A stretch of 64,000 bases of DNA from an uncultured virus (IMG/VR IMGVR_UViG_3300002835_000029). Taxonomy: Duplodnaviria > Heunggongvirae > Uroviricota > Caudoviricetes. Within the stretch, counting starts at the first letter, position 1. Every line of letters starts with the position of its first letter. Positions 6,714-52,362 of the stretch are shown piece by piece. The stretch is taken from IMG/VR virus record IMGVR_UViG_3300002835_000029, positions 62,001-126,000 of that record, one strand, 5' to 3'. A program made the translations under genes and the position numbers. The notes beneath the pieces are model-generated. The model was given only the letters and a program-made list of their open reading frames with translations, was not told where the DNA came from and did no database searches.

Positions 6714-6728
6714 ATATTTTCCTTTGTT

Positions 6729-11483: not shown

Positions 11484-11893
11484 GTTCTATATTGCCTAGT
11501 ATAAATTTCAAATCTAAAATTTGCTTTGACTAAATTGTTAAATACATTAAATCTAGCTGGTGGTGATACAACATTAGTTATACCCGCCCCAGTTAAAGCT
11601 CCACCAAGGCTACCACCAGCACCAACAGGAGCATAATGTATATAGTCATTGTAAGCAGTAAAATTAGTTATACCGCTAACAGTAGAAGCATAGCCATTTG
11701 ATACTCCAGTAGTAGCAAAAATTAATCCGTTTGGAGTTAGAGGGCTTGGAGGTCTAGTTACTGATACACTATCATATGTATATCCATGAGTCACACCAGA
11801 TATATTATCCATCAATTGCCGAGATATTTTTCTATCTCCTGCGGGTACAAGTTCAGATGGATTTATATTAGTATTTTCAGATCTTGTTGGCAT
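11480..11893 (-). CDS. hypothetical tail-region protein
   Basis: ATGA overlap with the hub-like gene; AGGTAGG upstream. Confidence 0.6.
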   Translation of the reverse strand: MPTRSENTNINPSELVPAGDRKISRQLMDNISGVTHGYTYDSVSVTRPPSPLTPNGLIFATTGVSNGYASTVSGITNFTAYNDYIHYAPVGAGGSLGGALTGAGITNVVSPPARFNVFNNLVKANFRFEIYTRQYRT

Positions 11894-11897
11894 TTTA

Positions 11898-20389: not shown

Positions 20390-23300
20390 GTGTTGCAGTC
20401 TCCGTAACAGGCCAAATTGACTCCTCTTATGTTATCATCCGCATCAACATAAGCATAGACATTATCTACAGATGTTATACCCTGACCGACATTATTACTG
20501 TCCCATGTGATTGTGGCACTTTTAGATGCTAATGAGTCCGATATTGGATAATTTAGAGTAATTAGCGGTAAATTGCCGGAAGTATCAAATATTGTAGCAT
20601 TAAAAGCTGATAAAAACAGATTAAAAGATGAACTAGAATTATTAATAATCTGTTGATCATTAAATGTATGGAGTGACATTACTGAAGAGGGGTAGGCATT
20701 AAAAGACTGACTTATTCCACGCACCCTCATTGGTAGTTGTTCATTTATAAATTCTGATCCCACCGGTCCAAATGTCATACAATTTAATGAATTGTCTGCA
20801 TAATAGCCGCTTCCTATTGCATGAAGCGGCATCACATCTTCTCTAATGAATTTTCCACTAACAAATAAATTTAAGCCATTAATTGGACTTGATCCAAACA
20901 TGCTAGAAAATGTTTGTTGGGATGTATCAAGAGATCCATTTGCTATAGTATACAAGTTGCAGATTTCTGGATTAACAAAATATCCACTACTATCAACAAA
21001 AAGTTTTAGTCCGCTCTCATGTATTTGTACTGGTGGGTTTGAATTGGCATACAAATTAAAATATCCACCATTAATAGATGTACCATTTTCTGGGGCAAAA
21101 AGGTTTAAAAATGCAAACTGGTATGGTGATCCACTTACATATAAAGGCATTGTGTCATCTTTTGTTGCGCTTAAATATATTGCATTATCTGATCTTATGT
21201 TAGAACTATGAATTTTAATTTTAGATGAGAATTGTTCACCAGAAGGATAAACCAAATCATATTGTAAAAACATCTGATTTATATCATTAAGAAAATATTT
21301 TTCTTTAAATTCTTTTGAATAAGACTCAACATCAAAAGAAGCCCAAGGTTCAGACGTATCTAAAATGTCATCGAATGTAAATTTACTAGTAATTTTCCTT
21401 ACACACCCAGAAGGTTCTAAGTGATGTATTGATCTATTTACTAGTCCAAATTGTTTACTTGGTCTTTCAAGTGAGTCTTGAGTTTTAGCATATAAACTGA
21501 CGATGAATTTGGGGCCAACTTTTCCATTTGACCACATGATATTATTGTATGTATCATGCTCTAAGATAGTATCAACACATAGTGCTTGATCATAAAAATT
21601 ATATCCCTTGGGCAAATTTTTAGATATTCTAGGAGAAATAGCAAAGAATCTATCTTGATCAACTTGTGGTATATCTGATAGATCAAATCTCAAAAAGTCA
21701 TTTTCAATTTGAGTGTGATAAGCTACCCCGGATAGATTTATATTGTTTGGTAAAGTAAGATTTGTTGTTTGATAATATCCAGATCCGTTATGACTCAAGT
21801 TGAATGTTATAAAGTCCTTACCAATTCTTTTAGTAAAAAAATCGAAATCTGGTGAGAATTGACAAACCTTAAAAGCTCCTAATTTCCACTGAGATATATC
21901 ATCATCAATATAGGAGGCGGGAACATTATATGAATCAAAAAATTCAGATACAGAAATTTGATTTTTAGATCTATCTGGATTAGACTCTACTATATTGCAA
22001 CTATCTTTTGAAATTCCAAATTCATGCAAGAAAATAGGAAGATCAAGGAAGGTACTAGGCATAGAATTTCCTACAGTAATTATTTCATCGCCAGCAAAAA
22101 GGTTATTTACTTGTGTCGATATATATACATCTGATGAATTATTAATATACATCTTTAATCTATTTGTTCCATCGTCATTATATGTAATTAATAAAGACAA
22201 TGGAAACTTTTGATTAAAAAATGATGTTGCATTTATAATAGCACTATTAGTAGCAAGTCTCAAATCAGATCCACTATTATATGATAGTACTAGCTTGGGG
22301 GAGGCTAAATTTGATGGAGAAACTACTTCTAGTAAGTTCTTTGTTTGAAAACTTGTTGCATAATCTGGAGTAAATCTTAAAAAGATACAAAATGAATTGT
22401 TGGATGGAGTAGAAAAAACTTTTAAATATCTTGAAGATCCAGATAATCTTAAGGCTTTATCAAAGGTGTCATCGATATTGTTAGCCCATTTGATTGATTT
22501 ATATGGAGTACTTACGCTACCAAATAGCTGCTCTGAAGAATATCTCCAGCCAACATTAGACAGTAAATGGCTTGATACATTGCCATTAGATAGTTGAGCT
22601 ACCAAAGCACCATCGTCAGAGTATATATTACTATCGGTAACCTTGTTATTAAAATCAATATAAGTGTTCAAGAAGGGACTATTTGCTTGCTTATGATTAA
22701 ACGAGAAATCAAATTCCATCTTCTTAAAATCACCACCTATTATTATTTCTCCAGTGTTTCCCCTCCATCTTCTTGAATAATTTGTGTTTAAATTAGATGG
22801 ATTAGTAAATCCAACTATAGAACCACCAGAAAGATTAGGATTACTAATAGTTCCACTTAAAGATGGTAATAGTGTTATATTTTTTCTAGTAGCATTTTTA
22901 TCAGATGGACTACCAAGAGTATGCATTGAAAGAGCATTGGCGGGCTTATAGTACAAAATCAAACTAACATGCGCAATGGAAGCCCCGCTTGGTATTGGGC
23001 AAATGTCTACATATAAATTTTCAAAATATGGACTAAGAGAATATCTGGTATTTCCTAGCTTTCTTGGATCAGAATAAATCTCTAGTGGTACTATATACTC
23101 TTTAAAGCTTGTGCTGTTTACAACAACCGAGTTGTTAATTATATAGTGATCACCAAGTGGGGATATGTCATTGCTAAAGTATTCGGATTGATCAGATAGG
23201 GAGCTATTAGACATACCAAAGTTAAAGGTATTATATCCAGATACATTTGGCACATTGTTTTCATTAAATCCTAGTGTACCACCATTCTGTAAAAATCCAC

Positions 23301-24876
23301 CAATTGGGGAAGTGCCATACAATAATTTATCATCACTATAGCCTACAACGTCTATTGGGTAATCGGGACTATTTGCATTTTTCTTAGCTATTACTTTAAG
23401 TTCAACGTAGTCTACATCAAAATAATCTTCATATTGATATTCTGAAAGTATAGCATCATTAAAACTTTTATTCCCGCCAAAGTTGAATGCTCCATCAGTA
23501 TAGGTATTCATCCTATCCCGATTGGTTCCAAATCTCAAAACTAGTCTTCCACTATCGATACTAGGGGTAGAATAAATAAGATTAATATAATCTCCATAAT
23601 CTACATTAGTGCTTTGTACTTTTTGAAGCAATGCATTAGATTGTAAATCGGTGGTATTTGTATAAATGCCATCTGGGGTTCTCCACACGCTGCTGGCTTC
23701 TGGATATATCTTATTATTGAAGTCAGTAAGTAATAATTGGTTAGGCAATACTATTTTTTTAGTACGCTCAGACTTTGATCTTACTTGGGTGAAAAAGTTT
23801 AGATAATTATCTTTCTGTATACCAACCCCGCCACTATTGCCAATTTCTAAGGCAGAGATATTTAAACCAATAAATGGATTTGGATTTAAAACATTTGAAT
23901 TAATTATACATGTTTGTTCATATCCAGAATCAAAATTGACATTAAATGGAGAAGAACTACAATCATATGCAAAACTAGTTCTTAGTGTATATGGTCCAGA
24001 AATATCCATTGATGGATAATTTGCGTCCCAAGTTGGTAATAACAAATTATTTATTAGAGGTTTAGATATATAAGTGGTAAATTGTGACTCACCCTCTCCG
24101 CGAATAAGAATGTCTTCATATTGAATTATCAATTTTCCATTTGGGTCTTCAAACTTTATATCATATAGCCTATACTGTTCTGGCTTTTTGTTGATATAGC
24201 TACTGAAAGGTGCTGAAGCCCTAACTGCTAAATAACTTAACTTTGCGACAGAAAGAGGTGTTGTAACAGCAAATTTATATTCTATATCCCCGCTAGCAAA
24301 AACTCTATAAGTAAAGCCAAAAGATTGTGAATCATCTGATATAATAGAGCCAACTTTTCCATTGTCCACATAGTCTTGAGTGAAAACCCCGTCATCTATA
24401 CTAGAGTAAATCGCAGTAGATCTTATAATATTATTCTCAATTTTATATACAGTTATATTTTGATTTGATGGTTTGCTTTTGAAAGATATATCTTGAATTG
24501 GATATAGTTTTTCAGAAGCCCTAAAGCTGGGTTTATATCCAGCGAACTTGTCTGGTTTCTTTGTCTTAAGACTTCCAGATCCAAATAGTTTTTGATTAAT
24601 AGCTAGAAGTGCTGAAGTGTAAGATGATATATTTCCAACAGCTGATTGAGATAGATCTTTTTTTAGAGAAAAATCTACATTTTCTTTCGGAGCGATAGAA
24701 CATACAGATGATAGTCTCGCTGAAAAATTTCGGTATACACTAACATTTTCTCTTAATGCAGATGTGGATGAAATTCTTGATGACGCACCATTGCTAACAG
24801 AGGAAATCTTAGCAGATAATTTACTATCTGAAAGCAATACAGTATTAGTATTTATAACGCATGAAGAACAAGTCAT
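20386..24876 (-). CDS. large tail protein with ConA/LamG-like domain (1496 aa)
   Basis: LamG-like segment FCIFLRFTP..LLITYN..LKMYIN; C-terminal (L/M)(N/P)L(F/Y) repeats; TAATG-coupled to the tape measure. Confidence 0.6.
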   Translation of the reverse strand: MTCSSCVINTNTVLLSDSKLSAKISSVSNGASSRISSTSALRENVSVYRNFSARLSSVCSIAPKENVDFSLKKDLSQSAVGNISSYTSALLAINQKLFGSGSLKTKKPDKFAGYKPSFRASEKLYPIQDISFKSKPSNQNITVYKIENNIIRSTAIYSSIDDGVFTQDYVDNGKVGSIISDDSQSFGFTYRVFASGDIEYKFAVTTPLSVAKLSYLAVRASAPFSSYINKKPEQYRLYDIKFEDPNGKLIIQYEDILIRGEGESQFTTYISKPLINNLLLPTWDANYPSMDISGPYTLRTSFAYDCSSSPFNVNFDSGYEQTCIINSNVLNPNPFIGLNISALEIGNSGGVGIQKDNYLNFFTQVRSKSERTKKIVLPNQLLLTDFNNKIYPEASSVWRTPDGIYTNTTDLQSNALLQKVQSTNVDYGDYINLIYSTPSIDSGRLVLRFGTNRDRMNTYTDGAFNFGGNKSFNDAILSEYQYEDYFDVDYVELKVIAKKNANSPDYPIDVVGYSDDKLLYGTSPIGGFLQNGGTLGFNENNVPNVSGYNTFNFGMSNSSLSDQSEYFSNDISPLGDHYIINNSVVVNSTSFKEYIVPLEIYSDPRKLGNTRYSLSPYFENLYVDICPIPSGASIAHVSLILYYKPANALSMHTLGSPSDKNATRKNITLLPSLSGTISNPNLSGGSIVGFTNPSNLNTNYSRRWRGNTGEIIIGGDFKKMEFDFSFNHKQANSPFLNTYIDFNNKVTDSNIYSDDGALVAQLSNGNVSSHLLSNVGWRYSSEQLFGSVSTPYKSIKWANNIDDTFDKALRLSGSSRYLKVFSTPSNNSFCIFLRFTPDYATSFQTKNLLEVVSPSNLASPKLVLSYNSGSDLRLATNSAIINATSFFNQKFPLSLLITYNDDGTNRLKMYINNSSDVYISTQVNNLFAGDEIITVGNSMPSTFLDLPIFLHEFGISKDSCNIVESNPDRSKNQISVSEFFDSYNVPASYIDDDISQWKLGAFKVCQFSPDFDFFTKRIGKDFITFNLSHNGSGYYQTTNLTLPNNINLSGVAYHTQIENDFLRFDLSDIPQVDQDRFFAISPRISKNLPKGYNFYDQALCVDTILEHDTYNNIMWSNGKVGPKFIVSLYAKTQDSLERPSKQFGLVNRSIHHLEPSGCVRKITSKFTFDDILDTSEPWASFDVESYSKEFKEKYFLNDINQMFLQYDLVYPSGEQFSSKIKIHSSNIRSDNAIYLSATKDDTMPLYVSGSPYQFAFLNLFAPENGTSINGGYFNLYANSNPPVQIHESGLKLFVDSSGYFVNPEICNLYTIANGSLDTSQQTFSSMFGSSPINGLNLFVSGKFIREDVMPLHAIGSGYYADNSLNCMTFGPVGSEFINEQLPMRVRGISQSFNAYPSSVMSLHTFNDQQIINNSSSSFNLFLSAFNATIFDTSGNLPLITLNYPISDSLASKSATITWDSNNVGQGITSVDNVYAYVDADDNIRGVNLACYGDCNT

Positions 24877-27800
24877 TATCTATTTCCTAAGACCTTACTA
24901 TCTCTTTTTAGTTTTCCACCCTCTACTACTCTAAACTGTGACTCTATAGACTCAAATATCTTTGTTTGAACTTCGCCAGTAAGGGCTTTTAATAACCCTC
25001 CATCATTTAAGTTAACATTGACATTTGTAGAGTCTAATTTAATACTTATATTAATTCCTTTAAGTTTTTCTACGGCTGAAGATATTTCAGCACCAAACGT
25101 GGTAGCGAACTTTGATAATCCATCAAACATTCCAGAGAAGAATCCGCCACCGCCAGCTTGTCCACCTTCAGAAAAGTATTGAACCCTACCACCTCTTGCC
25201 ATACCAACGGCACTACCATCTGAGCTAACAGCCCCTACGCTGTTATTGTTATTCATTGCGTGTAGCAGTTGTAAATTATTACCACGTTGGACTGCGCCTC
25301 TATTAACTACAAATTCACCCGGTGTTAACATGGCTGGAACAGTGTCAGTCCCTCTGGGTACAAATATACCACGACTTGCATATACAACGCCACCCCTAGA
25401 CATTGCTCGTTGATTTTCTATTGCTTGAGCTTCTTTAGCTTTTTCATTGCCCCTTTCCATAGTTTTGTCAAATGTAACTTGTGCTGCTGTTAAATTAACA
25501 ACGGATGTTTTTACTTGCATTTCTGCTATTTCTGTTCCAACTTGTCCAGTTTCTCCTAACATTCCGCCTAGCTCACGAAGCCTTGATTTACTAGCTTCTT
25601 CTTCGGCTGTTGTTCCAGCCATTACTTGTGCTGCTCTCATATCAGTTACACCTCTTGCTGATAGAGCAGAACCAGCGGCAGCTTCTGTTAAACCGCCGGG
25701 GCCAGCGAGTTGTTGACCATATAATTCTTGGACGCCAGCATCTTGTTGACGTTGAATATCTTGATATGCCATCCCAAGAGCATCAGCACCATAAAAGTTT
25801 TGTAATCTACTATCTCCGCTTGCTATAGCGGCAGTAGCACCAACAGCAGATTGTTTCTTAAAGAAATCTTCAACATCTCCCTTGATTAAAGACTCCATAG
25901 AATCTTTTTCAAGCTTGTTTTTCTCTTGAGTAATTTTAAGCTGCTCTTCTTCTAGTTTGATTAATCCTCTTATTGTATCAATTTGTGTCTTATAGGCTTT
26001 CTGTAAGTCTTTTTGAGTTTCATCAGCTTCTACGCCAGATTTTCCTGACATTCCACCCTTTTGACTTCTTTTGGCTTCTATAGCGGCAAAACTATTCTTA
26101 ATTTCAGTATTTCTTTGTCTTAACTCTCCTATGCTGCCAGTTCTCATATTTGTTAGACCTAGCCTACCGCTTTCGGCATTAGACTTGGCTAATAAGTTGT
26201 TTCTTCTTTCTTGTCCGGTAACGGCTTTGCCACCATATTTACCTTGAATTTCACGACCCTCCATAGTCAAGTCAAGAGCTTCTTGCTGTGCTTGAACTAG
26301 ATTTCTTTCAGCATCAATTCTCTTCTTAGTAAAGTCAATTAATACTTGTTCAGCTTTTGCTCTTTCGGCAGCAATTTTCTGAACATCTTCAAGCATTTTC
26401 TTTTGAGATTCAGATAGTTTATCTCCAAATACGCTTAAATCTCCAGCAAGTATTTTATCTACTTCTCCGGTATCTAATTCCATTCCTTCAATAACTGATT
26501 TTAGATTCTTTTTGGCATCTTCGGAAACATCTGGACCCATACCCTTAGTTAATTCTTCTGCAAATTTCTTTTTTAGATCGTCTGGACTTAAATTCTTAAA
26601 ATCGGCATCAGACATTGACTTCTTAATATTATTGAAAGCTGTGTTATAACCGGCTTGAGCTTGAGTAAATGCGGCAACATTACCTTCAAATTTCTTAATA
26701 TACTGCTCAGAAGATCCAAACTGTCTAAGATTATCTGATACACCCTTAACAGCATTCTGAATTTCTGCGGGGTCCATAGCTTGAGCAGAACTACTCATAG
26801 CTTGCTGTAAAAATTCAACATCATTTACGAATGCTGATCCACCAACCTCTAGACCGGCAGAAAAATTATTCATGTTAGCTGATAATGCGGTAGCAGTCGC
26901 AACCGCAGAACGCAAACCAAGATTCATAGCATTATACAATTCTTTTTGACGCTTAACCTCTTTCTCAATATTCTCTATTTCTTTATCTACTTGCTCCATT
27001 TGATCAGCTATTTGCTTGGCTTGAGCTATAGCAGCATCATAAGTTGTATCATCTCCAGATTTTGCAGCAGATTGAGCGGTTTTTAAAGCTTCTTCTCGCT
27101 GACTTCGAAGACTACCCATCGCTTGTGTTCTGATATCTTTTGCATTGCCACCCCTCGCTAAGCCAGATCTAATAGCAGCTTGCCTAGCAGGACTTTCAAC
27201 ATTAAAAGCTTCTTGTTGTTGTTTGGATGCATTATTAATTTGTTCTACATTTTGAGTGCTTAACTTATCATTTCTTTCTTTTGCCGAGTCAACATAACCT
27301 AAACTTAAATAGGCCATAGTTTCTCGACCATAGCTCAATGCCCCAGTAGATCTATTTTTACTATTTTCTTTTGCAAGTGAAGCTGCTCTTCCCACTTGAG
27401 ATGCCGCTTCACCACTTTTAGCTCTAATCTTTGCTAGAGCATCAGAAGCAGATATGGTTCCATTTTTAAAATCATCCATAGCTTTAGCAGCTATTTTTTG
27501 AGCTTCATCTAAGGATTTTTGAGTCTTAACTGCTCCAGCTTGGGCTGCGGCTAATGCAACAGCACTAGCTCTAGTATTTCCACCAAATAAAACATTGATA
27601 CCTTCTGTAAAATCGGGTGCAATATAAGCCAGTAACGTTCCTCCAAGATTTCCTATAGCTGCACCAATTAATGCTCCAAATGGACCACCAAAAAATGCAC
27701 CAATACCAGCACCCATTGTACCATATAAAGCTCTAGTGCTATTAGCAGCTTCTAAATCATATTGTTGTCCAGCTAATTTAGAAGCTTCTTGTACTTTACC

Positions 27801-30800
27801 TTCTTCTGTCGCTTTCTTTAATTCTTTAGACTTATCATAAAAAGCACCAATCATAAAATTAAACGCTTTAGTTACAGCGTATGCAATGCCAACTATTAAC
27901 AATAATGGTCCAGCAACAGCAACGGCGGCAGCTATAAATGGTGCCATCGCCGTCAATAATCCTGCCGCAGCCGTAAATGCTGCCGCAGCAAATCCAGTAG
28001 TTCCAGCAGCAGCTAATGTAGCAGAACCAGCTAATGTTAATGTTGCTGTGCTAGCAGCGGCACCGGCAGTACCCATCAAAAAACTAGCCGCTGTGGATGC
28101 CATAGAAGCAACTGTAGAAGCATTCAAAGTAATACCAAATGCAGATGCAGCAAAAGCTAAACCAGTTATAGTTGTTATAACTCCAAGAACACCATGAGAC
28201 ATTTGTGTAAGTAAGCTAGCATTTTCATCTAATGGTGGCAGCATAGACTGAATTGTTCCACTAACCATAGAAAGTCCCATTGCTACATTGCCAAAATCCA
28301 TACCAGAAGCTTTAGAACTACTTACAGCTTCTGCTGCATCAGCTTTTGCTGCTTTATCTGAAGCGGCAGCTTCTGTCATATTAGACTGAGCAGCTTTTTG
28401 AGATGCTATTGCTTGGGCATTTGTTGCGGCAATTGCTTTTGCTTGAGATTGACTTAAACCATCACCTAGACCTTTGCCAAGGTCTTCTGCCGTTACTTGT
28501 CCTTTTTTAGCTTTATTTTCAAGAAGTGCTACATTTTTTTCCTGTTCAGTAGCAAAAGTTCTACCTAACGGTCCTGTTTCGCTTTTATATTGTCCAACCT
28601 TTGTTCTTGCCTTTGCATCCTCTGCTTCTGCCGTCATTGATGCTTCTCTTAAAACGCCGCTACTACTAGCTGGTATTCCTGTTCCACCTTTGCCAGCATT
28701 TAATTGCGCATCAGCGGCAGCTAATGCTTGACGATGAGCTTCTTCTGCTGATACTCCAGATTTTAAAGCTCTAGCTAATGCTTTATATGCAGCTGTTACT
28801 TCTTCTTCCATAAAGAGTAAGTCCTGCATCTCTTTAGTAAGTTTATCAAATGTGTCAGAATTCTTTTTCATCGAATCTTTGACTAAAGCTGCATCTTTAG
28901 GACTTAATTTGCCCATTATTGCATCTGTAACTCTTGCTCCACTAGCGGCTAAGTCGCCGGGGGCTTTAACTCCAGAACCAGAAGATCCAGCCGCAAAGTG
29001 TTGAACAACTCCACCATTCGCATATTTTCCAACCTTGTTCATCCTATTTAACGAACCATAACCAATACGCTGTGCAGACTTACGATTAACAACAAACTCA
29101 CCGGGAGTTAATAGGGCGGGAACGGTATCAGTACCAACTCCACCGCCGGTAGCAAATTCACGGCGAGTTTCATAATCTCGCATAGATTTGCCCTGCCTTC
29201 TCATTGCATCAGATATTCTATTTTGTTTATCGGCTTGGGCTTTCTGAAATGCCCCATAAGCTGCCGATTGTGGCCTATAAGTTCCCATCCACTTTGGTAG
29301 TTTTACACTTCCCGGTCCACCAAAGTTAGTATAAATAAAATCTCCACGGGCATCTTTGGAGTTAAATAAAGCAATAGCGTCTTTCTCGCTTAATGCTGAA
29401 TTGCCCTGTAATTCTCTCATCCCCTTAACAACGTCGGAGATTAAATATTTTTGTGTTCCTCTTTCTAATACTTCACCACCTTCTGCAAACTTTTGGATAA
29501 GTCCACCAAAATATCTTTTTTTAGCAGATCCAATAATAGATTGAATGAATGGCAAACTTTCTAGGGCAAGTTGACCAGAGACTTTAGATTTTAAAGCGTC
29601 CTCACCGGGACTAGTCAATAAACCTGTTGTTCCTAAACCAGCTGATGATTTTGTAATTTTAGCATCTATATAATCCATGCCAAGATTACCATAGATACTT
29701 CTAAACTTGCCAATACCTCTTGTGAAGTCAAATGGTCTTCTTGAATCTTGTCCAGATAGGGGTTTGCCAGCTAATGCTGAAATAGTATTTTCAAATAATT
29801 GACCACGAAAACCTTGGTCTAAAGTATTATAAAAAGATGATAATTTTTTCACCGATCCGGGTGGTGATGTTTTCATTACCTCTGTAGCGAATCTATTTGC
29901 AGATGTGTCAATAGCTGTTGAAATAGATTGATTAATTATATTAGCAAATTGAGATTCTTCATCTCTGCCAACACCCTCTATGGTAGCTCCAAATGCAAAA
30001 TTTTTCTTACCCTTGAATAAACTTTGTATTGCCTCTAAAGAATTTTTTGGACCAAATTTAGAAGATAAACTATATCCAACGCCTCCTATAACTTGATTAA
30101 TAACATCAGAATCTCTATCGATAGAAATATTAGAAGAAGCAGGTTGCGGTAGATAAGAAGTAGTGGCTATACCAACAGAAGATTCTCTTGAAAATCTAGG
30201 AGATTTAATGGAAGCGCGAGAGGATGATAAAACATCAGCCGTAGACATGCCCATTTGTTTTGCTTTTGTGATTCCACCAGCCGCATATCGATTTTCATTC
30301 ATCGCTGCTAGTCTTCCAGCACCCATCTTGTTGACGCTACTTTTGCGTATAACAAATTCACCGGGAGCTAACATCGCAGGAACAGTATCTCCGTTCCCAG
30401 TACCGGGAACTAAACCACCTCTAGCAAACCCAAGAACTTTACCACCTTTATTATAAGTTCGTCCAGAAGCAGCACCACTCATCATGCCACCAAAAAAACC
30501 ACCCAATCCTTTAGCTAATCTAAAAGTTGCTAAAGCAGCAAGCATTGGTAGTAGTGGTTTAATAGAATCTCCAATTTTGATTAAAGCTGAAGCTAATGAT
30601 AGCGCAGTATTTGCCATTATCTGAAAAGTAGAAGTTTCAGTAATACTACGAATTAATGCCAAAAATTCTTCTTTGACTTTCATAATTCTAACAGCAAGTG
30701 CCGCCTGTGCCGATGCAGCATCTTGAGTTAAAGAATCGCCCGCTTTCATTGCGACATTAAGCGCAGACTGAGCAGTAGAGAATTGCTGTAATAGTGGAAG

Positions 30801-31799
30801 AACTTTACCAATTTGTCGGAATCCACCAAGCTCTTCAGCAATTCTAATAAATGTAACATCACCATCGCCAAGTCCAGCTAATGCCTCACTTAGCCTTTTA
30901 ATGGCTTCGTATGGGCCAACAAACTTACCATCTAAGTCTGTTAGTTCAACACCAAACTGTTTTAAGTATTCAATGGTCTTTGGTCGCTGGATACGTGTGA
31001 AGATTGTACGTAAGCCAGTACCAATACTTTCAGCACTCTCTCGGGTTGTGGCTCTTACGCTAGTAAATAGTGCTAAAAGTTCATTAAGATTACCACCAGA
31101 AGATTTGAATACACCACCCGTTCTACGAACAACGTCAATTAAGTCACTGGCTTCTACGGCGAATGCACCGGCTACAGCGTTAATAGAACCAAGCTGCTTT
31201 TCTAATGCTCCAACGCCTTGACCAAATTGTGCTAAGATAGCAATAGCACCTTCTGCCGTTTCTGTTATGCTATCAAAGTTAGGGGCAAGAGCAGCTTTTG
31301 CTAACGTTCTTAATGCTGCCGATGTGTCTTCAGCACTTAAACCGGCTTGTGCTAAAATTGTAGAAACATTAAGTAAATCAGAAGATGCAACACCAAATCC
31401 AGTAGACAAATCAGTAATTTGCTTAGTTAGTCCACGAAGCTGACCTATGCTTTTTCCAGTGACCTGAGAGACTTTAATCAATTGCCTCTCAAAGTCAATG
31501 GATGCTTGAACAGCATCACCAAGAGTACTGGTGAATAAGCCAACCGCCCGCGTGGCAATAGAAAAGGCAGCAAAACGCCTAATAGATAGAGCAAATGCTT
31601 TACCCATGCGTTCTGCTGCTGTTGTTGCTTGATTAGTTGCTTGAGCTACTTGCTGAATTTGTTTTTGAGCTTGTCCAGCATTCTGGACTTGTATGTTAAC
31701 ACTAACGCCATTTAACTGGGTTTGTATTTGTTGTACAACTTGCTTAACATTATTCGGGGCTTGTAGCTGTAATTGTGCGGTCAGTACGAATTTGGACAT
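24876..31799 (-). CDS. tail tape measure protein (2307 aa)
   Basis: TP901-type core (SIDFERQLIKVSQVTG..LAQAG..), Ala/Gln-rich helices, hydrophobic stretch near 27600-28300, three DTVPA(M/L)L(A/T)PGEFV motifs; AAGGAG RBS. Confidence 0.92.
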   Translation of the reverse strand: MSKFVLTAQLQLQAPNNVKQVVQQIQTQLNGVSVNIQVQNAGQAQKQIQQVAQATNQATTAAERMGKAFALSIRRFAAFSIATRAVGLFTSTLGDAVQASIDFERQLIKVSQVTGKSIGQLRGLTKQITDLSTGFGVASSDLLNVSTILAQAGLSAEDTSAALRTLAKAALAPNFDSITETAEGAIAILAQFGQGVGALEKQLGSINAVAGAFAVEASDLIDVVRRTGGVFKSSGGNLNELLALFTSVRATTRESAESIGTGLRTIFTRIQRPKTIEYLKQFGVELTDLDGKFVGPYEAIKRLSEALAGLGDGDVTFIRIAEELGGFRQIGKVLPLLQQFSTAQSALNVAMKAGDSLTQDAASAQAALAVRIMKVKEEFLALIRSITETSTFQIMANTALSLASALIKIGDSIKPLLPMLAALATFRLAKGLGGFFGGMMSGAASGRTYNKGGKVLGFARGGLVPGTGNGDTVPAMLAPGEFVIRKSSVNKMGAGRLAAMNENRYAAGGITKAKQMGMSTADVLSSSRASIKSPRFSRESSVGIATTSYLPQPASSNISIDRDSDVINQVIGGVGYSLSSKFGPKNSLEAIQSLFKGKKNFAFGATIEGVGRDEESQFANIINQSISTAIDTSANRFATEVMKTSPPGSVKKLSSFYNTLDQGFRGQLFENTISALAGKPLSGQDSRRPFDFTRGIGKFRSIYGNLGMDYIDAKITKSSAGLGTTGLLTSPGEDALKSKVSGQLALESLPFIQSIIGSAKKRYFGGLIQKFAEGGEVLERGTQKYLISDVVKGMRELQGNSALSEKDAIALFNSKDARGDFIYTNFGGPGSVKLPKWMGTYRPQSAAYGAFQKAQADKQNRISDAMRRQGKSMRDYETRREFATGGGVGTDTVPALLTPGEFVVNRKSAQRIGYGSLNRMNKVGKYANGGVVQHFAAGSSGSGVKAPGDLAASGARVTDAIMGKLSPKDAALVKDSMKKNSDTFDKLTKEMQDLLFMEEEVTAAYKALARALKSGVSAEEAHRQALAAADAQLNAGKGGTGIPASSSGVLREASMTAEAEDAKARTKVGQYKSETGPLGRTFATEQEKNVALLENKAKKGQVTAEDLGKGLGDGLSQSQAKAIAATNAQAIASQKAAQSNMTEAAASDKAAKADAAEAVSSSKASGMDFGNVAMGLSMVSGTIQSMLPPLDENASLLTQMSHGVLGVITTITGLAFAASAFGITLNASTVASMASTAASFLMGTAGAAASTATLTLAGSATLAAAGTTGFAAAAFTAAAGLLTAMAPFIAAAVAVAGPLLLIVGIAYAVTKAFNFMIGAFYDKSKELKKATEEGKVQEASKLAGQQYDLEAANSTRALYGTMGAGIGAFFGGPFGALIGAAIGNLGGTLLAYIAPDFTEGINVLFGGNTRASAVALAAAQAGAVKTQKSLDEAQKIAAKAMDDFKNGTISASDALAKIRAKSGEAASQVGRAASLAKENSKNRSTGALSYGRETMAYLSLGYVDSAKERNDKLSTQNVEQINNASKQQQEAFNVESPARQAAIRSGLARGGNAKDIRTQAMGSLRSQREEALKTAQSAAKSGDDTTYDAAIAQAKQIADQMEQVDKEIENIEKEVKRQKELYNAMNLGLRSAVATATALSANMNNFSAGLEVGGSAFVNDVEFLQQAMSSSAQAMDPAEIQNAVKGVSDNLRQFGSSEQYIKKFEGNVAAFTQAQAGYNTAFNNIKKSMSDADFKNLSPDDLKKKFAEELTKGMGPDVSEDAKKNLKSVIEGMELDTGEVDKILAGDLSVFGDKLSESQKKMLEDVQKIAAERAKAEQVLIDFTKKRIDAERNLVQAQQEALDLTMEGREIQGKYGGKAVTGQERRNNLLAKSNAESGRLGLTNMRTGSIGELRQRNTEIKNSFAAIEAKRSQKGGMSGKSGVEADETQKDLQKAYKTQIDTIRGLIKLEEEQLKITQEKNKLEKDSMESLIKGDVEDFFKKQSAVGATAAIASGDSRLQNFYGADALGMAYQDIQRQQDAGVQELYGQQLAGPGGLTEAAAGSALSARGVTDMRAAQVMAGTTAEEEASKSRLRELGGMLGETGQVGTEIAEMQVKTSVVNLTAAQVTFDKTMERGNEKAKEAQAIENQRAMSRGGVVYASRGIFVPRGTDTVPAMLTPGEFVVNRGAVQRGNNLQLLHAMNNNNSVGAVSSDGSAVGMARGGRVQYFSEGGQAGGGGFFSGMFDGLSKFATTFGAEISSAVEKLKGINISIKLDSTNVNVNLNDGGLLKALTGEVQTKIFESIESQFRVVEGGKLKRDSKVLGNR

Positions 31800-31832
31800 A
31801 ATTCTCCTTTACTGATGCCACACAACTCTATC

Positions 31833-32711
31833 TCATTCACTATCCGTTGCTGTTGACTTCTTTTTCTTAGCGGGTTTTTCTGTTTCTTCTACTTTTACTT
31901 CTTTATCCTCGTCGTCTACATATGTTACGGTAGGGACATAATTGCCATTTTCATCAAGAACATTGCCATCTTTATCTACTCTCTTGCCTTCATCATTAAG
32001 CCAATATCCTTGCTTATCTATTCTCTTACCGTCTGTATCTACTGTTTCGCCCTTATCATTTACCAAGCTTAGATTATCATCCACAAAATGGAACATTTTA
32101 AGGAATTTGTTTTCTGGCAGTTTGGCCTCAAAATCCTTATCTACAGAATACATCATGGATGCTAGACTAGAAGCTGCGCTAAAAGCGATCTGATCATCAG
32201 ATCTTTCCTTATAGTCATCTAGATCATTATACACTTTCTGACCATTTTCATAATAAGTGCAACTAGCAACAAGGTAGTCAAATCTTACGTTATCAGAAAT
32301 GGATTCTGCGGTATTTTGCTCAAGGCTCATTTTCTCAGCAATTAAGTCTCTAAGCTCATTTCTCTTAATTCTCATCTGAATAGCAATGTTTTTGCCTTCA
32401 GAAGCCTTAAGCTTTTTCCCTGCATTTCCACTCACATATAGACTTCTTTCAAGATTTGCAATCTCTTGAATTACCTTCTTTTGTTCTTCGTCTTTGCCTT
32501 CGTCCCAAATACCTTGTTCTTTCATAAACTTTTCTAGTTCCTTTTTAGTCATAATCCCATCACGAACGCAATCAGTCCAAGCTTTGGCTCCGACTCTTTG
32601 CGCCTGAGAAATTACTGAACTACTTGGGCGTTTTACAACTATTTTAGTTGTTTCTTCTTTACCATCTCTTGTAGTTTTAACATCAACGATCTTTTCCTTA
32701 TCCTGCGACAT
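31833..32711 (-). CDS. putative tail assembly chaperone (292 aa)
   Basis: Immediately upstream of the tape measure; charged; paralogous to 33070..34101; C-terminal (V/I/L)(D/N)xxG repeats. Confidence 0.6.
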   Translation of the reverse strand: MSQDKEKIVDVKTTRDGKEETTKIVVKRPSSSVISQAQRVGAKAWTDCVRDGIMTKKELEKFMKEQGIWDEGKDEEQKKVIQEIANLERSLYVSGNAGKKLKASEGKNIAIQMRIKRNELRDLIAEKMSLEQNTAESISDNVRFDYLVASCTYYENGQKVYNDLDDYKERSDDQIAFSAASSLASMMYSVDKDFEAKLPENKFLKMFHFVDDNLSLVNDKGETVDTDGKRIDKQGYWLNDEGKRVDKDGNVLDENGNYVPTVTYVDDEDKEVKVEETEKPAKKKKSTATDSE

Positions 32712-32726
32712 GGTTTCCTCCAGTTA

Positions 32727-33059
32727 TTAGTTATTAGGATTGATTACGGGTATTTTCATTTGATATCTTGTCCACTCAACTTCATATTGAGCCAATTCTG
32801 CGTCAATATTTCTTGCTTGATTATTTCCTCGGTCAAGTATTTCTGACCTTACTTTATTGTATAAGCTCTTCATGACTTCTTGATCTTTTGATAAGGGTTC
32901 TCCAGATTCATTAGTCCACAAAAAACTAAAATTTTCTTCTAAAGTACTCAAAGCACCAATCATAGTAGTCTGTATTTTCTTTTTAAGAATTTTGGACAAC
33001 CTATCTTTTGAGTCGGCTTTGTATTTTGATTCTCTAACCTTTTTATAGTCTGGTTCCAT
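32727..33059 (-). CDS. hypothetical helical protein in the chaperone cluster
   Basis: GGAGG RBS; lies between the two chaperone-like paralogs. Confidence 0.7.
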   Translation of the reverse strand: MEPDYKKVRESKYKADSKDRLSKILKKKIQTTMIGALSTLEENFSFLWTNESGEPLSKDQEVMKSLYNKVRSEILDRGNNQARNIDAELAQYEVEWTRYQMKIPVINPNN

Positions 33060-33069
33060 ATTTATCCTC

Positions 33070-34101
33070 CTATTTTCCTCTGTTTTGATTATTAGCCATG
33101 GCCTGTATGTTTCTTCTTTGATCCGGTAGATTTTGCTCGTCTAAAGATCCATAACGATCAAGGGCGAGTTTTCTTTGGTGCTTTATCATCTTAGCATTCA
33201 TGTCATTCATATCATTAATTTTTTCTGCTTTTTCTTTGCTGGCAACAACAAATACCTCTGGTGCATTCTTAATTTTTTCGTTTTTAGTGCTATTTTCGAA
33301 TTCTTTTTCTACCCTGTCCTTCTCTCTCTTCTTATGCTGAATAATAAACCAACCGTCTAGCATATCGTCATCTTCTATAACTTCTTTGTTTGGACATTCC
33401 ATAGACTCTTGAATATTATCATACATTTGTGACCAAATTAAAATATTCTTTTGGTTATAAGTTAATTCGGTATTTGGCGGATTTGCAAAAAGTGTAAAGC
33501 CAGAACTTTCTCTAGTGACCCATAACGATTTCCAAGGGTCATTTCTAGCTAATTCTCTAGATTTACTTTCTGAAATAAAGTGCGACTGCCATTCATCTAC
33601 AACGTATTGCAACGACAATTCTTCAAAATTATAGAGCTTACCATTGAAGTATGTCGTATTTTTTATTATCCAAGCTAACCTTTCAGAAGAAGCAATGCCT
33701 TCGCAAGTATTTTGATGATATATATACTTTTTATTTAGGTGAGATGTTATTTGAGCTTCGCCCGCCCGTATATATTTTCTTAAATTACTAGCTAGCATAG
33801 CATTATCTCTAGCGTTGTAGATTTCTACTTTTAGTCTTTCAATGTCTTTTTTGAGTCCTTCCTCCTTCTTATCATCGTGCAGTGTCCAAAGTTCATTTTC
33901 CATCATCCATTGATCCATATCCTCTTCTGTCATTATTTCTTCAGAATATGCTTTATCGTAGGCTTTCTGATATACTTGGCAAGATTTGAAAGATTGATCA
34001 AGTGTTAGTGGGTATATTTCTAAATCTATATCCTTATGACTTATGAATACTTTGCCAGACCTTATCATAGAAACGAAAAACTCCCGCTCATGATGCTTCA
34101 T
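33070..34101 (-). CDS. putative tail assembly chaperone with C-terminal extension (343 aa)
   Basis: Follows the tail tube gene; N-terminal half aligns by eye with the 292-aa protein. Confidence 0.55.
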   Translation of the reverse strand: MKHHEREFFVSMIRSGKVFISHKDIDLEIYPLTLDQSFKSCQVYQKAYDKAYSEEIMTEEDMDQWMMENELWTLHDDKKEEGLKKDIERLKVEIYNARDNAMLASNLRKYIRAGEAQITSHLNKKYIYHQNTCEGIASSERLAWIIKNTTYFNGKLYNFEELSLQYVVDEWQSHFISESKSRELARNDPWKSLWVTRESSGFTLFANPPNTELTYNQKNILIWSQMYDNIQESMECPNKEVIEDDDMLDGWFIIQHKKREKDRVEKEFENSTKNEKIKNAPEVFVVASKEKAEKINDMNDMNAKMIKHQRKLALDRYGSLDEQNLPDQRRNIQAMANNQNRGK

Positions 34102-34126
34102 ACAGCTTTCTCACAAGCGGGAGTTT
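34073..34126 (-). terminator. terminator-like hairpin overlapping the start of the 343-aa gene
   Basis: Perfect 11-bp inverted repeat (AAACTCCCGCT 34078-34088 / AGCGGGAGTTT 34116-34126), extendable to 16 bp with G-U pairs; mRNA continues UUUUUCGUUU. Confidence 0.6.
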
Positions 34127-34129
34127 CAT
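34088..34129 (-). CDS. putative 13-aa leader peptide MKLPLVRKLYEAS
   Basis: AAGGA-AACAAA-ATG; spans the 5' arm and loop of the hairpin; overlaps the next start codon out of frame. Confidence 0.45.
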   Translation of the reverse strand: MKLPLVRKLYEAS

Positions 34130-34167
34130 TTTGTTTCCTTAAAAATCCTAAAAATAAATACTATTGA

Positions 34168-35451
34168 TTATTGACCATTATAGAAAAATCCACCAAAATC
34201 AGTTGCTGCAACATTTGCTGGATCATTTGGATGAAGAACACTTAGGGAGTTATATGTACTATAACTATAAGTTACAGTAGCATTACCACCGCCAGCGTCA
34301 CCGCCAGTATAATTAATAGATGATAGTCTATTTTTACTACCAAGGTCTATTATGGTTCCATCATGTAAAACAATTCTAATTCTTTCATTCTTAGTATTGT
34401 TGCCATAATTTGCTTGACCAACATTAAATTGACCATTAGGATCTCCCGGCGGATTGGCCTTTAGACCTTCTTCTAAAGCTTGAACAAAGTCTCCAGAAGT
34501 TGTTATTGCTTCAATTTCACAAGTAACTTCTACTGGGAAGTTGGCATAACGAGTATATGGAGCTTTTCTTCCAAGTTCTTGAACACTTTCTCTATTAAGA
34601 GAGCAACTGATATTAACATTCTGAAGATGCACAAGTGGTACGCCTGTGACATTTAGTGTAGTTGACCAAGCGTTACCGGGACTAGTATTCTGCCTAACAC
34701 CGTTGATTGACTGTGGTAGAATAGACTTATTTAACGCAACGTTTTCTCTTCTTTGTACACCGCCTCTAAAAGCTGTACTATTAAAATTACCCGGCCCATC
34801 TTCAAACGGAGCCGCAGGAGCATTGCCAGAAGTTAACTGTCGAGCTAAAGTTGGATTAAACTTACTTGGAGTCAAATTCCACTGCTTGTGATTACCAACA
34901 AGTGTGAGAGATTCGGTCGCATTGCCATCTACAGGGATTGTATATCCAATACTACTAATATACATACCACTCATCAAAACTTCTACTGTGTCATTAGTGG
35001 CTGTATTACCATCCCCAATATGAGAAACTGTATCAGAATAAATACCTAAAATAGCATTGCAACGCTGTTTGGTTCTTGCTACAAGAGCTGCTTTAGCGGC
35101 TGGAGTTGTTAACGAGTTGTCAGCTTGAACAGCAGTAGATGCCACATGATACATTAAGGGGTAACCATCAAGAACCTTTTCTAAGGTGACTTCAATATCG
35201 GGTACGCCTTCAATATTTTCATAAATGTGGATTTGACCGAGTTCAAAGACTTGTTCTAGATTGAATGTTGTGTTGATGCCAACGCTCTGAACGCCGTGTA
35301 ATATCTGTACACCTTGACTATGTTTTGCATTCGAATTAGTTGGATTTACAGTTGAAAGTGTTGTCACGCCAGTAGCAGTGACAGAATTTAGTGGCTCAAG
35401 TGCTACAGCCTGACAAGCGTAGAAAATTCTAGCATTATTTGAAAGTGGCAT
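34168..35451 (-). CDS. major tail tube protein (427 aa)
   Basis: GVQSVGINTTFNLEQVFELGQ..PDIEVTLEK and second-repeat LQNVNISCSLNRESVQELG..FPVEVTCEI; own promoter and AGGAGAG RBS; position between neck genes and chaperones. Confidence 0.75.
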   Translation of the reverse strand: MPLSNNARIFYACQAVALEPLNSVTATGVTTLSTVNPTNSNAKHSQGVQILHGVQSVGINTTFNLEQVFELGQIHIYENIEGVPDIEVTLEKVLDGYPLMYHVASTAVQADNSLTTPAAKAALVARTKQRCNAILGIYSDTVSHIGDGNTATNDTVEVLMSGMYISSIGYTIPVDGNATESLTLVGNHKQWNLTPSKFNPTLARQLTSGNAPAAPFEDGPGNFNSTAFRGGVQRRENVALNKSILPQSINGVRQNTSPGNAWSTTLNVTGVPLVHLQNVNISCSLNRESVQELGRKAPYTRYANFPVEVTCEIEAITTSGDFVQALEEGLKANPPGDPNGQFNVGQANYGNNTKNERIRIVLHDGTIIDLGSKNRLSSINYTGGDAGGGNATVTYSYSTYNSLSVLHPNDPANVAATDFGGFFYNGQ

Positions 35452-35486
35452 AATTCTCTCCTATTTTAAGATGGTAAGCTCTAGTT

Positions 35487-35496
35487 AGTTATACAC
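35487..35496 (-). promoter_or_regulatory. putative late promoter motif GTGTATAACT
   Basis: Intergenic copy 35 nt before the tube-gene ATG, preceded by TTTTA. Confidence 0.6.
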
Positions 35497-35501
35497 TAAA
35501 A

Positions 35502-36473
35502 TTATACTGATGTTTCGATTGTTTCAAGGGTCATCCTAACAATGCCAGCGTAAAAATTACTATTTATTAACTTCATGTTCTGAACGTTAGAATTTTTCAA
35601 TCTTAAGTTTCCACGATAGTAGTTTTCTATTAAATCTGGATATCGTAAAGCTCCAGACACTGGAAAACCGTTATAATCTAGGGGAAATGCTCCACTTCTG
35701 GCAATAGAGTTACTATCAAACATATATATGGTTTTATCGTTTTGTAATGAGATAATATCTACTAATTTATTACGAGTATATTCATCTTCAGCTAAACAGT
35801 GGAATAAAACGTCAGTATCTACCCATTGACCGCCTCCTAATTGATAACCCTTCATTGTGCGTCTTGGAACAATTTCAATAGCTATGGATGGTAATTGGAT
35901 TCTAGCTTCTGTTGGTAGATCATATTTACCCTTATTGAGATTATTGAAGTCTTCGCCCAAGTTTAGGGATGAATACTGAATTTCTGCCAACCAAGGTAAA
36001 CTATTAGCATATACCACATTGATATATCTATAACTATATTCCGCTTTTACTATGCTATTTGTAGGAATAGAATTATTAAATATAATACGCCCATTGAAAT
36101 AATCAACCTTATGAGCATATGTTCCACTAGTACTGGATGGATAAAAAGTATTATTTACGTATACTCCAGAAATTCCCGGTTTAGCATTATTAGTACCAAT
36201 AATTGGCGGTGGTGAATATGAAACTCCGCTTTGCCAAATCCAGTTTTTCCTAAATCCCTCCCAAGCTTTGCCACTTGGAAAAGACGGGTTGGAAGATAAT
36301 CTTAATTTACTATAGTCTATACCCTCTGGAGATAATTCTCCTAAAGAGACATTCATGTAGTTGCCTTTTTCTAAAAGCGACCACTCCAAGAATTCAACTA
36401 TGTTGTCTTGTAATTCATTATTTAGCGTAGTATCAAATACGCTATCAAATCCTTTTAGGTTTAAATAGTTCAT
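35502..36473 (-). CDS. putative tail terminator/completion protein (323 aa)
   Basis: IQLPSIAIE..GYQLGG..DVLFHCLAEDEYTRNKLVDII pattern; immediately upstream of the tube gene. Confidence 0.6.
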   Translation of the reverse strand: MNYLNLKGFDSVFDTTLNNELQDNIVEFLEWSLLEKGNYMNVSLGELSPEGIDYSKLRLSSNPSFPSGKAWEGFRKNWIWQSGVSYSPPPIIGTNNAKPGISGVYVNNTFYPSSTSGTYAHKVDYFNGRIIFNNSIPTNSIVKAEYSYRYINVVYANSLPWLAEIQYSSLNLGEDFNNLNKGKYDLPTEARIQLPSIAIEIVPRRTMKGYQLGGGQWVDTDVLFHCLAEDEYTRNKLVDIISLQNDKTIYMFDSNSIARSGAFPLDYNGFPVSGALRYPDLIENYYRGNLRLKNSNVQNMKLINSNFYAGIVRMTLETIETSV

Positions 36474-37111
36474 TATGTACCTAATATTTTTTGAAGAATG
36501 TTAGCTATTTCTTTTTCTTGAGATGAGCCAACTAAAGAGCGAGTAACAAAATTATTATCTGAAGTTCCAGAAAACTCAGGTGGAACTCTGAATGATCCTC
36601 CAGATTTCATGTTGCCAAGTTTTGATCTGCCTAAACCAGTTTGGGGATTGTATTCATATCCAACTATTATAACTTGATCACCTTTGTTGAGTAACCAATC
36701 TAGCCAATGTAAATCTCCATCTCTATATACGGAATGACCTTGTGGCAAACTCAATAAATTAGAGAAATCATCGGGCTGAATATTTATTTCAATACCGCCA
36801 TTTTTGAGTTTGTTATTATATGGAACTATTGATACGGAGCATGAATTTACAATAGATGTTATTATAGTATTAACTATAGTAGATGGTGAGATTGTTATAC
36901 CAAACTGGCCTACTAATGACTGAGTATTACCAGACAATAAGGATTGCATTTCGGGTTGATTTGATATCCAAGATGGAATTAGTAGTTTAATACTATTTAG
37001 AATTTTTGAAGCATTTGATTTCATTGAAGAATTAAATTGAGTAGCCAAAGCAGATAGTATATTATTTTCTATCTGATCAACTGGCTCAAGTAATTTCAAT
37101 GTTATCGTCAT
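36473..37111 (-). CDS. putative neck/tail completion protein (212 aa)
   Basis: LHWLDWLL..G and C-terminal GTSDNNFVTRSL, recalling HK97 gp10-like proteins; synteny. Confidence 0.5.
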   Translation of the reverse strand: MTITLKLLEPVDQIENNILSALATQFNSSMKSNASKILNSIKLLIPSWISNQPEMQSLLSGNTQSLVGQFGITISPSTIVNTIITSIVNSCSVSIVPYNNKLKNGGIEINIQPDDFSNLLSLPQGHSVYRDGDLHWLDWLLNKGDQVIIVGYEYNPQTGLGRSKLGNMKSGGSFRVPPEFSGTSDNNFVTRSLVGSSQEKEIANILQKILGT

Positions 37112-52288: not shown

Positions 52289-52298
52289 TATTATACAC
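52289..52298 (-). promoter_or_regulatory. putative late promoter motif GTGTATAATA
   Basis: Abuts the T-tract of the capsid terminator; 41 nt before the ATG at 52247. Confidence 0.6.
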
Positions 52299-52332
52299 AA
52301 AAAAGCCACCCCCAATCGCTTGAGGATGGCTT
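52299..52332 (-). terminator. intrinsic terminator after the major capsid gene
   Basis: AAGCCATCCTCAA-GCGA-TTGGGGGTGGCTT followed by TTTT: 13-bp stem with 2 G-U pairs and a GNRA loop. Confidence 0.85.
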
Positions 52333-52362
52333 GATTGCGACCGATATCTTTAGATATCTAGA

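Follow-up and report, generated by a model that had tools for sequence, protein, structure and literature searches.

A covarying hairpin enclosing the start codon of the gene after the tail tube gene in uncultured phages: a candidate leaky terminator and translational gate

Introduction

Phage tails need hundreds of tube subunits and few copies of the tape measure protein and its helpers, and to our knowledge the control of the ratio between tube and tape measure proteins is understood for only a few model phages. Leaky intrinsic terminators follow major structural genes of phages, as T-phi follows the capsid gene of T7. Here, we analyzed a 64,000-nucleotide stretch of DNA (hereafter, the window) from an uncultured virus of the class Caudoviricetes (positions 62,001 to 126,000 of the IMG/VR record IMGVR_UViG_3300002835_000029). 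On its minus strand, the junction between a tail tube gene and the following gene, which encodes a 343-aa protein, carries a long hairpin and a T tract. The start codon of the second gene lies in the loop of the hairpin, and a short upstream open reading frame (uORF) crosses the 5′ arm. The original prediction for this site, made from the sequence of the window, was an attenuator-like leader that would step expression down from the abundant tube protein to the low-copy genes downstream.

The element shares with the leaky terminators of phages a GC-rich hairpin and a U tract placed directly after the gene for a very abundant virion protein, and low-copy downstream genes that appear to have no promoter of their own. 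It differs from them in that the hairpin lies outside spacer DNA: the loop holds the next start codon, and the 3′ arm and the U tract are codons 3–11 of the next gene. In pyrBI attenuation of Escherichia coli, a leader open reading frame (ORF) extends through the terminator hairpin, and termination is prevented when a ribosome closely follows the polymerase. Here, too, the 5′ arm of a terminator-like hairpin lies within a leader ORF that has its own Shine-Dalgarno (SD) sequence, and an antiterminator helix is unneeded. However, the element shows no evident sensing logic, as neither regulatory codons nor a pause site was identified; the leader starts approximately 50 nt before the T tract, so that a fresh ribosome would rarely be in time; and the main gene begins inside the hairpin. 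In the translational attenuation of cat and erm genes, the main ribosome-binding site is hidden in a hairpin, over whose 5′ arm a leader ORF lies. The two arrangements have in common a single hairpin, a leader ORF across its 5′ arm, and a main start that is, or here would be, freed by the leader ribosome. In contrast to cat and erm, the present element has no conserved stalling peptide, as both the peptide and the frame of the uORF vary; its AUG lies in the loop rather than in the stem, and a U tract is added. The coat protein of MS2 binds a hairpin at the replicase start, which serves as its operator. That hairpin likewise presents a start codon within a small conserved structure, whereas the stem described here is much longer and is followed by a U tract, and no binding protein is suggested.

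Coupling of neighboring genes by RNA unfolding or by termination and re-initiation is established in the form of models, for example for f1 genes VII–IX and the coat and lysis genes of MS2 and fr (PMC12548453); this review also states that translating ribosomes can keep terminator hairpins from forming. In these coupled pairs, the upstream ORF stops a few nucleotides at most before, or just past, a structured start with a weak SD sequence. The ATGA or TAATG overlaps found in some relatives of the present phage are alike in this respect; the difference is that the upstream ORF here is a dedicated mini-ORF rather than a real gene, and that the structure would double as a terminator. PMC6316719 describes the late gene clusters of SPP1 as bounded by stem-loop terminators. 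In a limited literature search, no phage structural module was found in which a leader ORF accompanies a terminator hairpin enclosing the start of the next gene. The ingredients are thus known singly, namely leaky terminators, leader ORFs across hairpin arms, and coupling through structured starts. We did not find described the combination of a terminator-like hairpin with the next start in its loop, the first codons of that gene in its 3′ arm and U tract, and a mini-ORF.

Results

Folding of the hairpin

All parts of the predicted leader were present on the minus strand: the uORF, its AAGGA, the 16-bp stem, the T tract, the ATG in the loop, and the +1 relation between the two reading frames (Table 1). 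RNA folding of 34050..34175 gave a stem of 17 contiguous pairs. The minimum free energy (MFE) of this segment was −36.4 kcal/mol (z = −4.08), and none of 200 dinucleotide shuffles was as stable, so the predicted stem held up on folding. The hairpin alone was estimated at −25.6 kcal/mol, and the 42 hairpin-bearing leaders of relatives described below spanned −19.4 to −29.2 kcal/mol. In many of these relatives, the main AUG sits at the apex of a nearly continuous helix.

When the minus strand of the window was searched for hairpins followed by a T tract with loop size unlimited, 15 sites were obtained, and the present one was the most stable at −28.3 kcal/mol. A terminator scan limited to loops of 3–8 nt did not list it because of that limit. 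Searching 31000..37000 on both strands with the Rfam covariance models yielded no match at E ≤ 1. No alternative antiterminator pairing was seen in the MFE or the centroid structure, in which the terminator hairpin alone was present; the nearest other minus-strand copy of the core hexamer of the 3′ arm is at 34448, approximately 320 nt upstream of the 5′ arm. A lower helix, in which the SD sequence of the uORF was paired with GTTTCT in the MFE structure of the window, was dropped from the model, as only some of the relatives have this helix when inspected by eye.

Conservation and covariation in relatives

A search of viral contigs with the tube protein yielded 154 relatives, of which 80 were retained, and a search of metagenome contigs with the 343-aa protein added 33 further relatives. 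The baits of the metagenome search included the peptide pattern encoded by the 3′ arm, and for this reason the second set is biased toward a conserved 3′ arm. Of the 54 unique leaders in which the homologue of the 343-aa protein aligned from residue 1, 42 had the same hairpin (identities of 32–100% to the 343-aa protein in these 42). The other 12 leaders, which are more distant, were without it.

In the alignment of the 42 leaders, a 10-bp core was paired in 96.6% of cells. Six of the ten core pairs had changed on both sides in a compensatory manner, three were invariant, and none of 500 shuffles matched the alignment in any of five measures. As a control, the pairing partner was slid by 1–3 columns, upon which pairing fell to 31–58%. 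The 18 leaders found through the tube protein alone were 96.0% paired, with six of the ten pairs compensatory and again none of 500 shuffles equal to them. The structure for the pair counts was supplied manually, since RNAalifold left unaided called only seven core pairs, four of them with compensatory changes. By these comparative measures, the stem is selected as RNA, and the covariation analysis that the original prediction had proposed as a check came out in its favor.

A covariance model of the element found a single site in the window and in the complete genome record of 128,858 bases; the one additional match, of 30.4 bits, was the mirror image of this site on the other strand. Among the 80 tube-derived loci, 23 were matched, each of which had served to build the model or is identical to a locus that had. 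Outside the model-building set, three of 15 further loci from genome bins were matched with 49–67 bits, and each of these three independent matches has a uORF of 15–17 codons that stops at +11 of the main AUG.

The bins holding these 15 relatives (L116–L130) were considered as a clue to the host. They had been assigned to SAR202, Verrucomicrobiales, Heimdallarchaeota, and others, that is, to very different phyla and even to archaea; no host is proposed, and the 15 sequences are most likely phage contigs that were mis-binned. In one further relative (L015:3600-3670), exactly 36 nt of the 5′ arm and loop are missing when it is set against its near relatives L017 and L018, and its homologue of the 343-aa protein is consequently without an in-frame ATG. 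The gap reflects either a deletion that occurred naturally between the arms or an artefact of assembly at the hairpin.

Start codon and coding constraint of the 343-aa gene

The homologues of the 343-aa protein aligned from Met1, and the N-terminal motif M-x3-[ED][RK]-E-[FYL]-[FL]-[VI] was kept even where the hairpin was missing. Because this motif is conserved as protein, the ATG in the loop is, judged from the alignment, the real start of the gene. A second in-frame ATG (Met12, 34068) was rejected as the start, as Met12 is not conserved and is replaced by S, K, R, or T in relatives.

The coding sequence in the 3′ arm departs from the codon usage of the window. Glu-Arg-Glu at codons 5–7 is written GAG-CGG-GAG; CGG accounts for 8 of the 656 Arg codons of the window (1.2%) and GAG for 170 of the 820 Glu codons (20.7%). 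CGG was nevertheless used at that Arg codon in 22 of 24 hairpin-bearing rows, and in an exception, L033, the Arg codon is CGA, matching a T in the 5′ arm. Codon choice and pairing together indicate that the 3′ arm is under nucleotide-level selection inside a coding sequence.

Two relatives without the hairpin, L035 and L039, still use GAG-CGG at codons 5–6. The complementary 5′ arm is absent from both, and they carry a canonical terminator and a promoter-like motif instead. Their GAG-CGG may be a relic of the embedded hairpin or a precursor to it.

The uORF and Shine-Dalgarno sequences

An ATG-initiated uORF that starts upstream of the 5′ arm and reads through the arm core was present in 31 of the 42 leaders. 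In 30 of them, the ATG lies within 30 nt of the arm and is preceded by GGA at a distance of 5–11 nt. When those 30 nt were shuffled, 14.2 ± 3.0 leaders had such a uORF, with a maximum of 25 in 2000 shuffles. The predicted leader ORF thus stands as an enriched feature lying over the 5′ arm, and not as a universal one, because the remaining 11 leaders are without it.

In the window, the uORF spans the 5′ arm and the loop and ends within the 3′ arm, and the main ATG is +1 relative to its codon boundary. Its stop codon falls within −18 to +11 of the main AUG in all 31 uORF-bearing leaders. In 15 leaders, including all 11 of the subclade of the window, the stop is at +11; in some others, it overlaps the main AUG as ATGA or TAATG, and still others stop just after the 5′ arm. 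The encoded peptides vary (MKLPLVRKLYEAS, MTPACENFLHEIS, MKLP, MNNSRK, and others), the uORF is found in all three frames relative to the main gene, and neither regulatory codons nor a conserved leader peptide was found across the leaders. Since both frame and peptide vary, translation of the uORF, rather than its peptide, would matter. Within the subclade of the window, the uORF frame survives compensating indels (L012 and L090 compared with L001).

Upstream of the main ATG in the window, there is only GAGA, compared with GGAG or GAGG before most genes of the window, in agreement with the predicted lack of a clear ribosome-binding site for the 343-aa gene. Among the 42 leaders, a main-gene SD sequence GAGG was present 5–7 nt before the AUG in 27. 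It has been lost in all 11 leaders of the subclade of the window, every one of which has a long uORF. The loss of the main SD sequence in this lineage fits a dependence on the leader.

The AAGGA of the uORF is the second half of a GGA pair. In the window, the spacing TAGGA-N6-AAGGA occurs once in an intergenic context. The pair (TAGGA-N6-7-AAGGA) is kept ahead of the hairpin also by the 11 leaders that lack an ATG uORF, several of which have ATA or ATT at the expected ATG position. Possible roles of the pair are a 30S standby site, weak non-AUG initiation, or a protein site.

The T tract, terminators at the junction and a promoter-like motif

At least six T were counted in the 8 nt after the stem in 38 of the 42 leaders, and a run of at least five T in 36. 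Codons 8–10 contained 5–8 T in hairpin-bearing rows versus 3–6 in the nine hairpin-less homologues compared, which have Leu, Ile, Tyr, or Arg at these codons. Among 48 unique hairpin-less relatives, 25 had a textbook terminator with a short GC stem and 7–9 T no more than about 75 nt after the tube stop codon. The tube junction thus appears to serve for termination throughout the wider group.

The motif TTTT[AT]GTGTATA[AT][AT] recurs in five intergenic regions of the minus strand (55312, 52298, 41308, 35496, and 3330), one of them upstream of the tube gene. It resembles an extended −10 element and is probably the late promoter of this phage group. Among the unique loci, 12 of 20 with the hairpin and 28 of 49 others (40 of 69 in total) have the motif no more than 160 nt ahead of the tube gene. 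Between the tube gene and the next gene, it was found in none of the 20 hairpin-bearing loci and in six of the 49 others. Taken together, the T tracts, the terminators of the relatives, and the placement of the motif suggest a unit of promoter, tube gene, and terminator, with the downstream genes fed by read-through.

The sole other strong intergenic terminator-like site of the window is on the minus strand at 52290..52350 (52304; −20.5 kcal/mol, 7 T). It directly follows a 336-aa gene with a weak match to a major head protein (phrog_2522, E 3.9e-4) and is immediately followed by the promoter-like motif.

Genes of the locus

The stop codon of the 427-aa gene upstream of the hairpin is TAA at 34170..34168. 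An AlphaFold model of its product (predicted template modelling score 0.77) matched the tail tube proteins of SH-Ab15497, T5, P74-26, and DT57C in Foldseek with E-values of 1.8e-9 to 3e-4; all four are duplicated-domain tail tube proteins. The protein had no Pfam or PHROG match. Because of these fold matches, the label of a tail tube gene, given to it in the original prediction, is correct, and the fold is of the T5 type.

The model of the 343-aa protein was confident and all-helical, with a predicted local distance difference test score of 88. Foldseek returned nothing for it at E ≤ 0.001, VIA-align in its wide mode gave just generic helical hairpins (Z ≤ 8.7 over approximately 60 residues), PHROG and Pfam gave no family match, and its matches in the ESM Atlas were unnamed viral clusters only. 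The function of a chaperone first assigned to it is a guess from position and is not supported by any family or fold match. A sequence search of the PDB gave no significant match for either the 427-aa or the 343-aa protein.

The 2307-aa ORF downstream is the tape measure protein (PF10145, E 6e-26). With this exception, searching the six neighboring proteins against PHROGs and Pfam gave nothing beyond sub-threshold Pfam matches, and blastn and tblastn searches of GenBank phage records gave no match. A stretch of the 343-aa protein (residues 42–158) is homologous to the 292-aa protein encoded on the minus strand at 31833..32711 (27% identity by tblastn, E 8e-6 in L001–L003), so that the 110-aa gene in the interval from the tube gene to the tape measure gene has a paralogue on either side. 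From the tape measure gene onward, the minus strand of 3336..31799 is occupied by very large ORFs of 2307, 1496, 2213, 616, 137, 1584, and 1125 aa, which have no PHROG match, the PF10145 match of the tape measure protein being the sole exception; the distal tail of this phage group is essentially unannotated.

Table 1 Features of the tube gene junction and its surroundings in the window
Feature	Positions	Strand	Basis
Hairpin, 5′ arm	34111..34126	−	Sequence reading, folding, covariation
17-nt loop with the start codon (34101..34099) of the 343-aa gene	34094..34110	−	Sequence, folding
3′ arm, codons 3–8 of the 343-aa gene, including the rare-codon run GAG-CGG-GAG	34078..34093	−	Sequence, codon counts
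T tract TTTTTCGTTT, codons Phe-Phe-Val-Ser	34071..34080	−	Sequence
Whole element, match of covariance model R1	34066..34143	−	84.4 bits, E 1e-17
13-codon uORF MKLPLVRKLYEAS, ATG 34129..34127 to TGA 34090..34088	34088..34129	−	Sequence
AAGGA, SD sequence of the uORF, 6 nt before its ATG	34136..34140	−	Sequence
First AGGA of the pair TAGGA-N6-AAGGA	34146..34149	−	Conservation by eye across leaders
343-aa all-helical protein gene	33070..34101	−	Structure model; follows the tube gene, with two further genes before the tape measure gene
427-aa major tail tube gene (T5 pb6 / P74-26 type)	34168..35451	−	AlphaFold model and Foldseek
Promoter-like motif TTTTAGTGTATAAC upstream of the tube gene	35484..35500	−	Recurrence of GTGTATA; putative promoter

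Discussion

The structure of the element is well supported, and its mechanism is moderately supported. The explanation that we favor, and regard as reasonably probable, is that the hairpin acts as a leaky intrinsic terminator and, in addition, as a gate for translation of the next gene, which translation of the uORF opens. According to this explanation, the hairpin and its U tract would end most transcripts that start from the tube gene's own promoter; termination would thus be partial, and only read-through RNA would extend into the 343-aa gene, its two small neighbors downstream, and the tape measure gene. On the read-through RNA, the main AUG would lie in the loop with codons 3–8 paired, so that a 30S subunit would be unable to load unaided, and in the lineage of the window the 343-aa gene has no usable SD sequence of its own. 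The block would be relieved through the 13-codon uORF, which has a good SD sequence and starts just before the 5′ arm, and whose stop codon follows the main AUG by 11 nt. While translating it, a ribosome would unwind the stem and, at termination, would re-initiate at the nearby AUG or leave it exposed. This step follows the coupling models by RNA unfolding and by scanning reviewed in PMC12548453.

Two extensions of this reading may be considered. Read-through that depends on ribosomes, as in pyrBI, is possible but doubtful on kinetic grounds, since only about 50 nt separate the uORF start from the T tract; the ribosomes would have to pass on from the tube stop codon, 38 nt upstream of the uORF. 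More tentatively, the element may be a three-way switch for the proportion of tube protein to the proteins of tail assembly and the tape measure: it would stop the majority of transcripts, keep the next gene silent on the remainder, and have the mini-ORF as its key. In such a switch, the mini-ORF may receive ribosomes from the heavily translated tube gene over the same 38 nt.

Several observations weigh against a terminator and gate opened by a uORF. The 23 leaders from metagenome contigs were found partly through the peptide pattern of the 3′ arm, which inflates the conservation of that arm. The T tract is partly ordinary Phe usage, as TTT makes up 80% of the Phe codons of the window. In some leaders it is interrupted: four of the 42 have five T in 8 nt, and L116–L118 read TAT TT. 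at this place; the tract is weaker in L012, L016, L018, L022, and L116–L118. The loop of 17 nt and the overall length of 46–61 nt are atypical for a terminator. Concerning the uORF, about one third of the leaders had a uORF-like ATG even after shuffling, and the leaders are related to each other, so that the enrichment is weaker than the raw counts would indicate. The 11 leaders without an ATG uORF form one subclade and retain both the hairpin and the AAGGA, for which reason the uORF is regarded as an accessory to the hairpin and not as its core. Finally, the link between the loss of the main SD sequence and the long uORF rests essentially on one clade, and it is only suggestive because it amounts to one evolutionary event.

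Other explanations were weighed. The hairpin and T tract might serve only to terminate the tube transcript; fitting a terminator into a short intergenic space would then have produced the loop start codon and the uORF as by-products, neither of which would control the 343-aa gene. The position at the junction and the T tract itself are what such a terminator would show, and the 11 leaders without a uORF, as well as the unconserved peptide and variable frame of the uORF in the others, would be expected. We nevertheless regard this explanation as unlikely: a stem of 16–20 bp over codons 3–8 with the AUG at its apex must, on general principle, affect 30S loading on read-through RNA, the uORF is enriched over shuffles and always lies across the 5′ arm with its own GGA, and the main SD sequence has been lost exactly where a long uORF is fixed. 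Conversely, the hairpin might throttle translation of the 343-aa gene, with coupling to the uORF where one is present, and never terminate transcription; the T run would then simply encode Phe-Phe. The commonness of TTT as a Phe codon, the long loop, and the broken T tracts of some leaders all fit, but the hairpin-less homologues differ in the residues encoded at these codons and contain fewer T there, canonical terminators occur at this very junction in relatives, and the hairpin-bearing loci have no other terminator or promoter motif between the tube gene and the low-copy genes. A gate acting without termination thus seems equally unlikely to us.

The fact that the stem is more conserved than pairing requires, with three of ten core pairs invariant, raises the question of a bound protein. 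Together with the start codon at the hairpin apex in many relatives, it would suit an operator through which the 343-aa or the tube protein exerts feedback, or an RNase III site that separates or stabilizes the tube mRNA. However, the coding of Glu-Arg-Glu and a requirement for GC pairs account for much of the invariance, this model leaves the conserved T tract and the uORF without a role, and no RNA-binding fold was recognized in the 343-aa protein, which is a weak negative; we think this explanation improbable. The original prediction had also allowed for a +1 shift, that is, a programmed frameshift joining the uORF to the 343-aa frame to give an N-terminally extended protein. The +1 relation of the two frames in the window is compatible with it. 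Among the relatives, however, uORFs occur in all three frames, including in-frame with a stop codon, they often end before the main AUG (stops at −18 to −2), and they are missing from 11 of the 42 leaders; no conserved slippery site was seen by eye. As the frame relation varies and the loop ATG is conserved as a start, frameshifting was rejected, and we give it next to no weight.

The leaky terminator with a uORF-opened gate, if it operates as proposed, unites a terminator, a masked start codon, and a mini-ORF in one covarying RNA element, and would be a compact means of producing tube protein in quantity and the downstream products sparingly. Because the element lies within coding sequence, rare codons, and even the residues Phe-Phe at positions 8–9, are dictated by the RNA structure, and the locus therefore offers a defined, testable case of overlapping RNA and protein constraints. 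It may also provide a compact part for tuning expression steps in operons. Moreover, the element marks a phage clade that has no cultured or named relative in the GenBank phage records searched. Should the three-way switch prove true, read-through, downstream translation, or both would scale with translation of the tube gene itself, and the element would be a self-contained stoichiometry device in a large clade of uncultivated siphophages with T5-type tubes from lakes and oceans.

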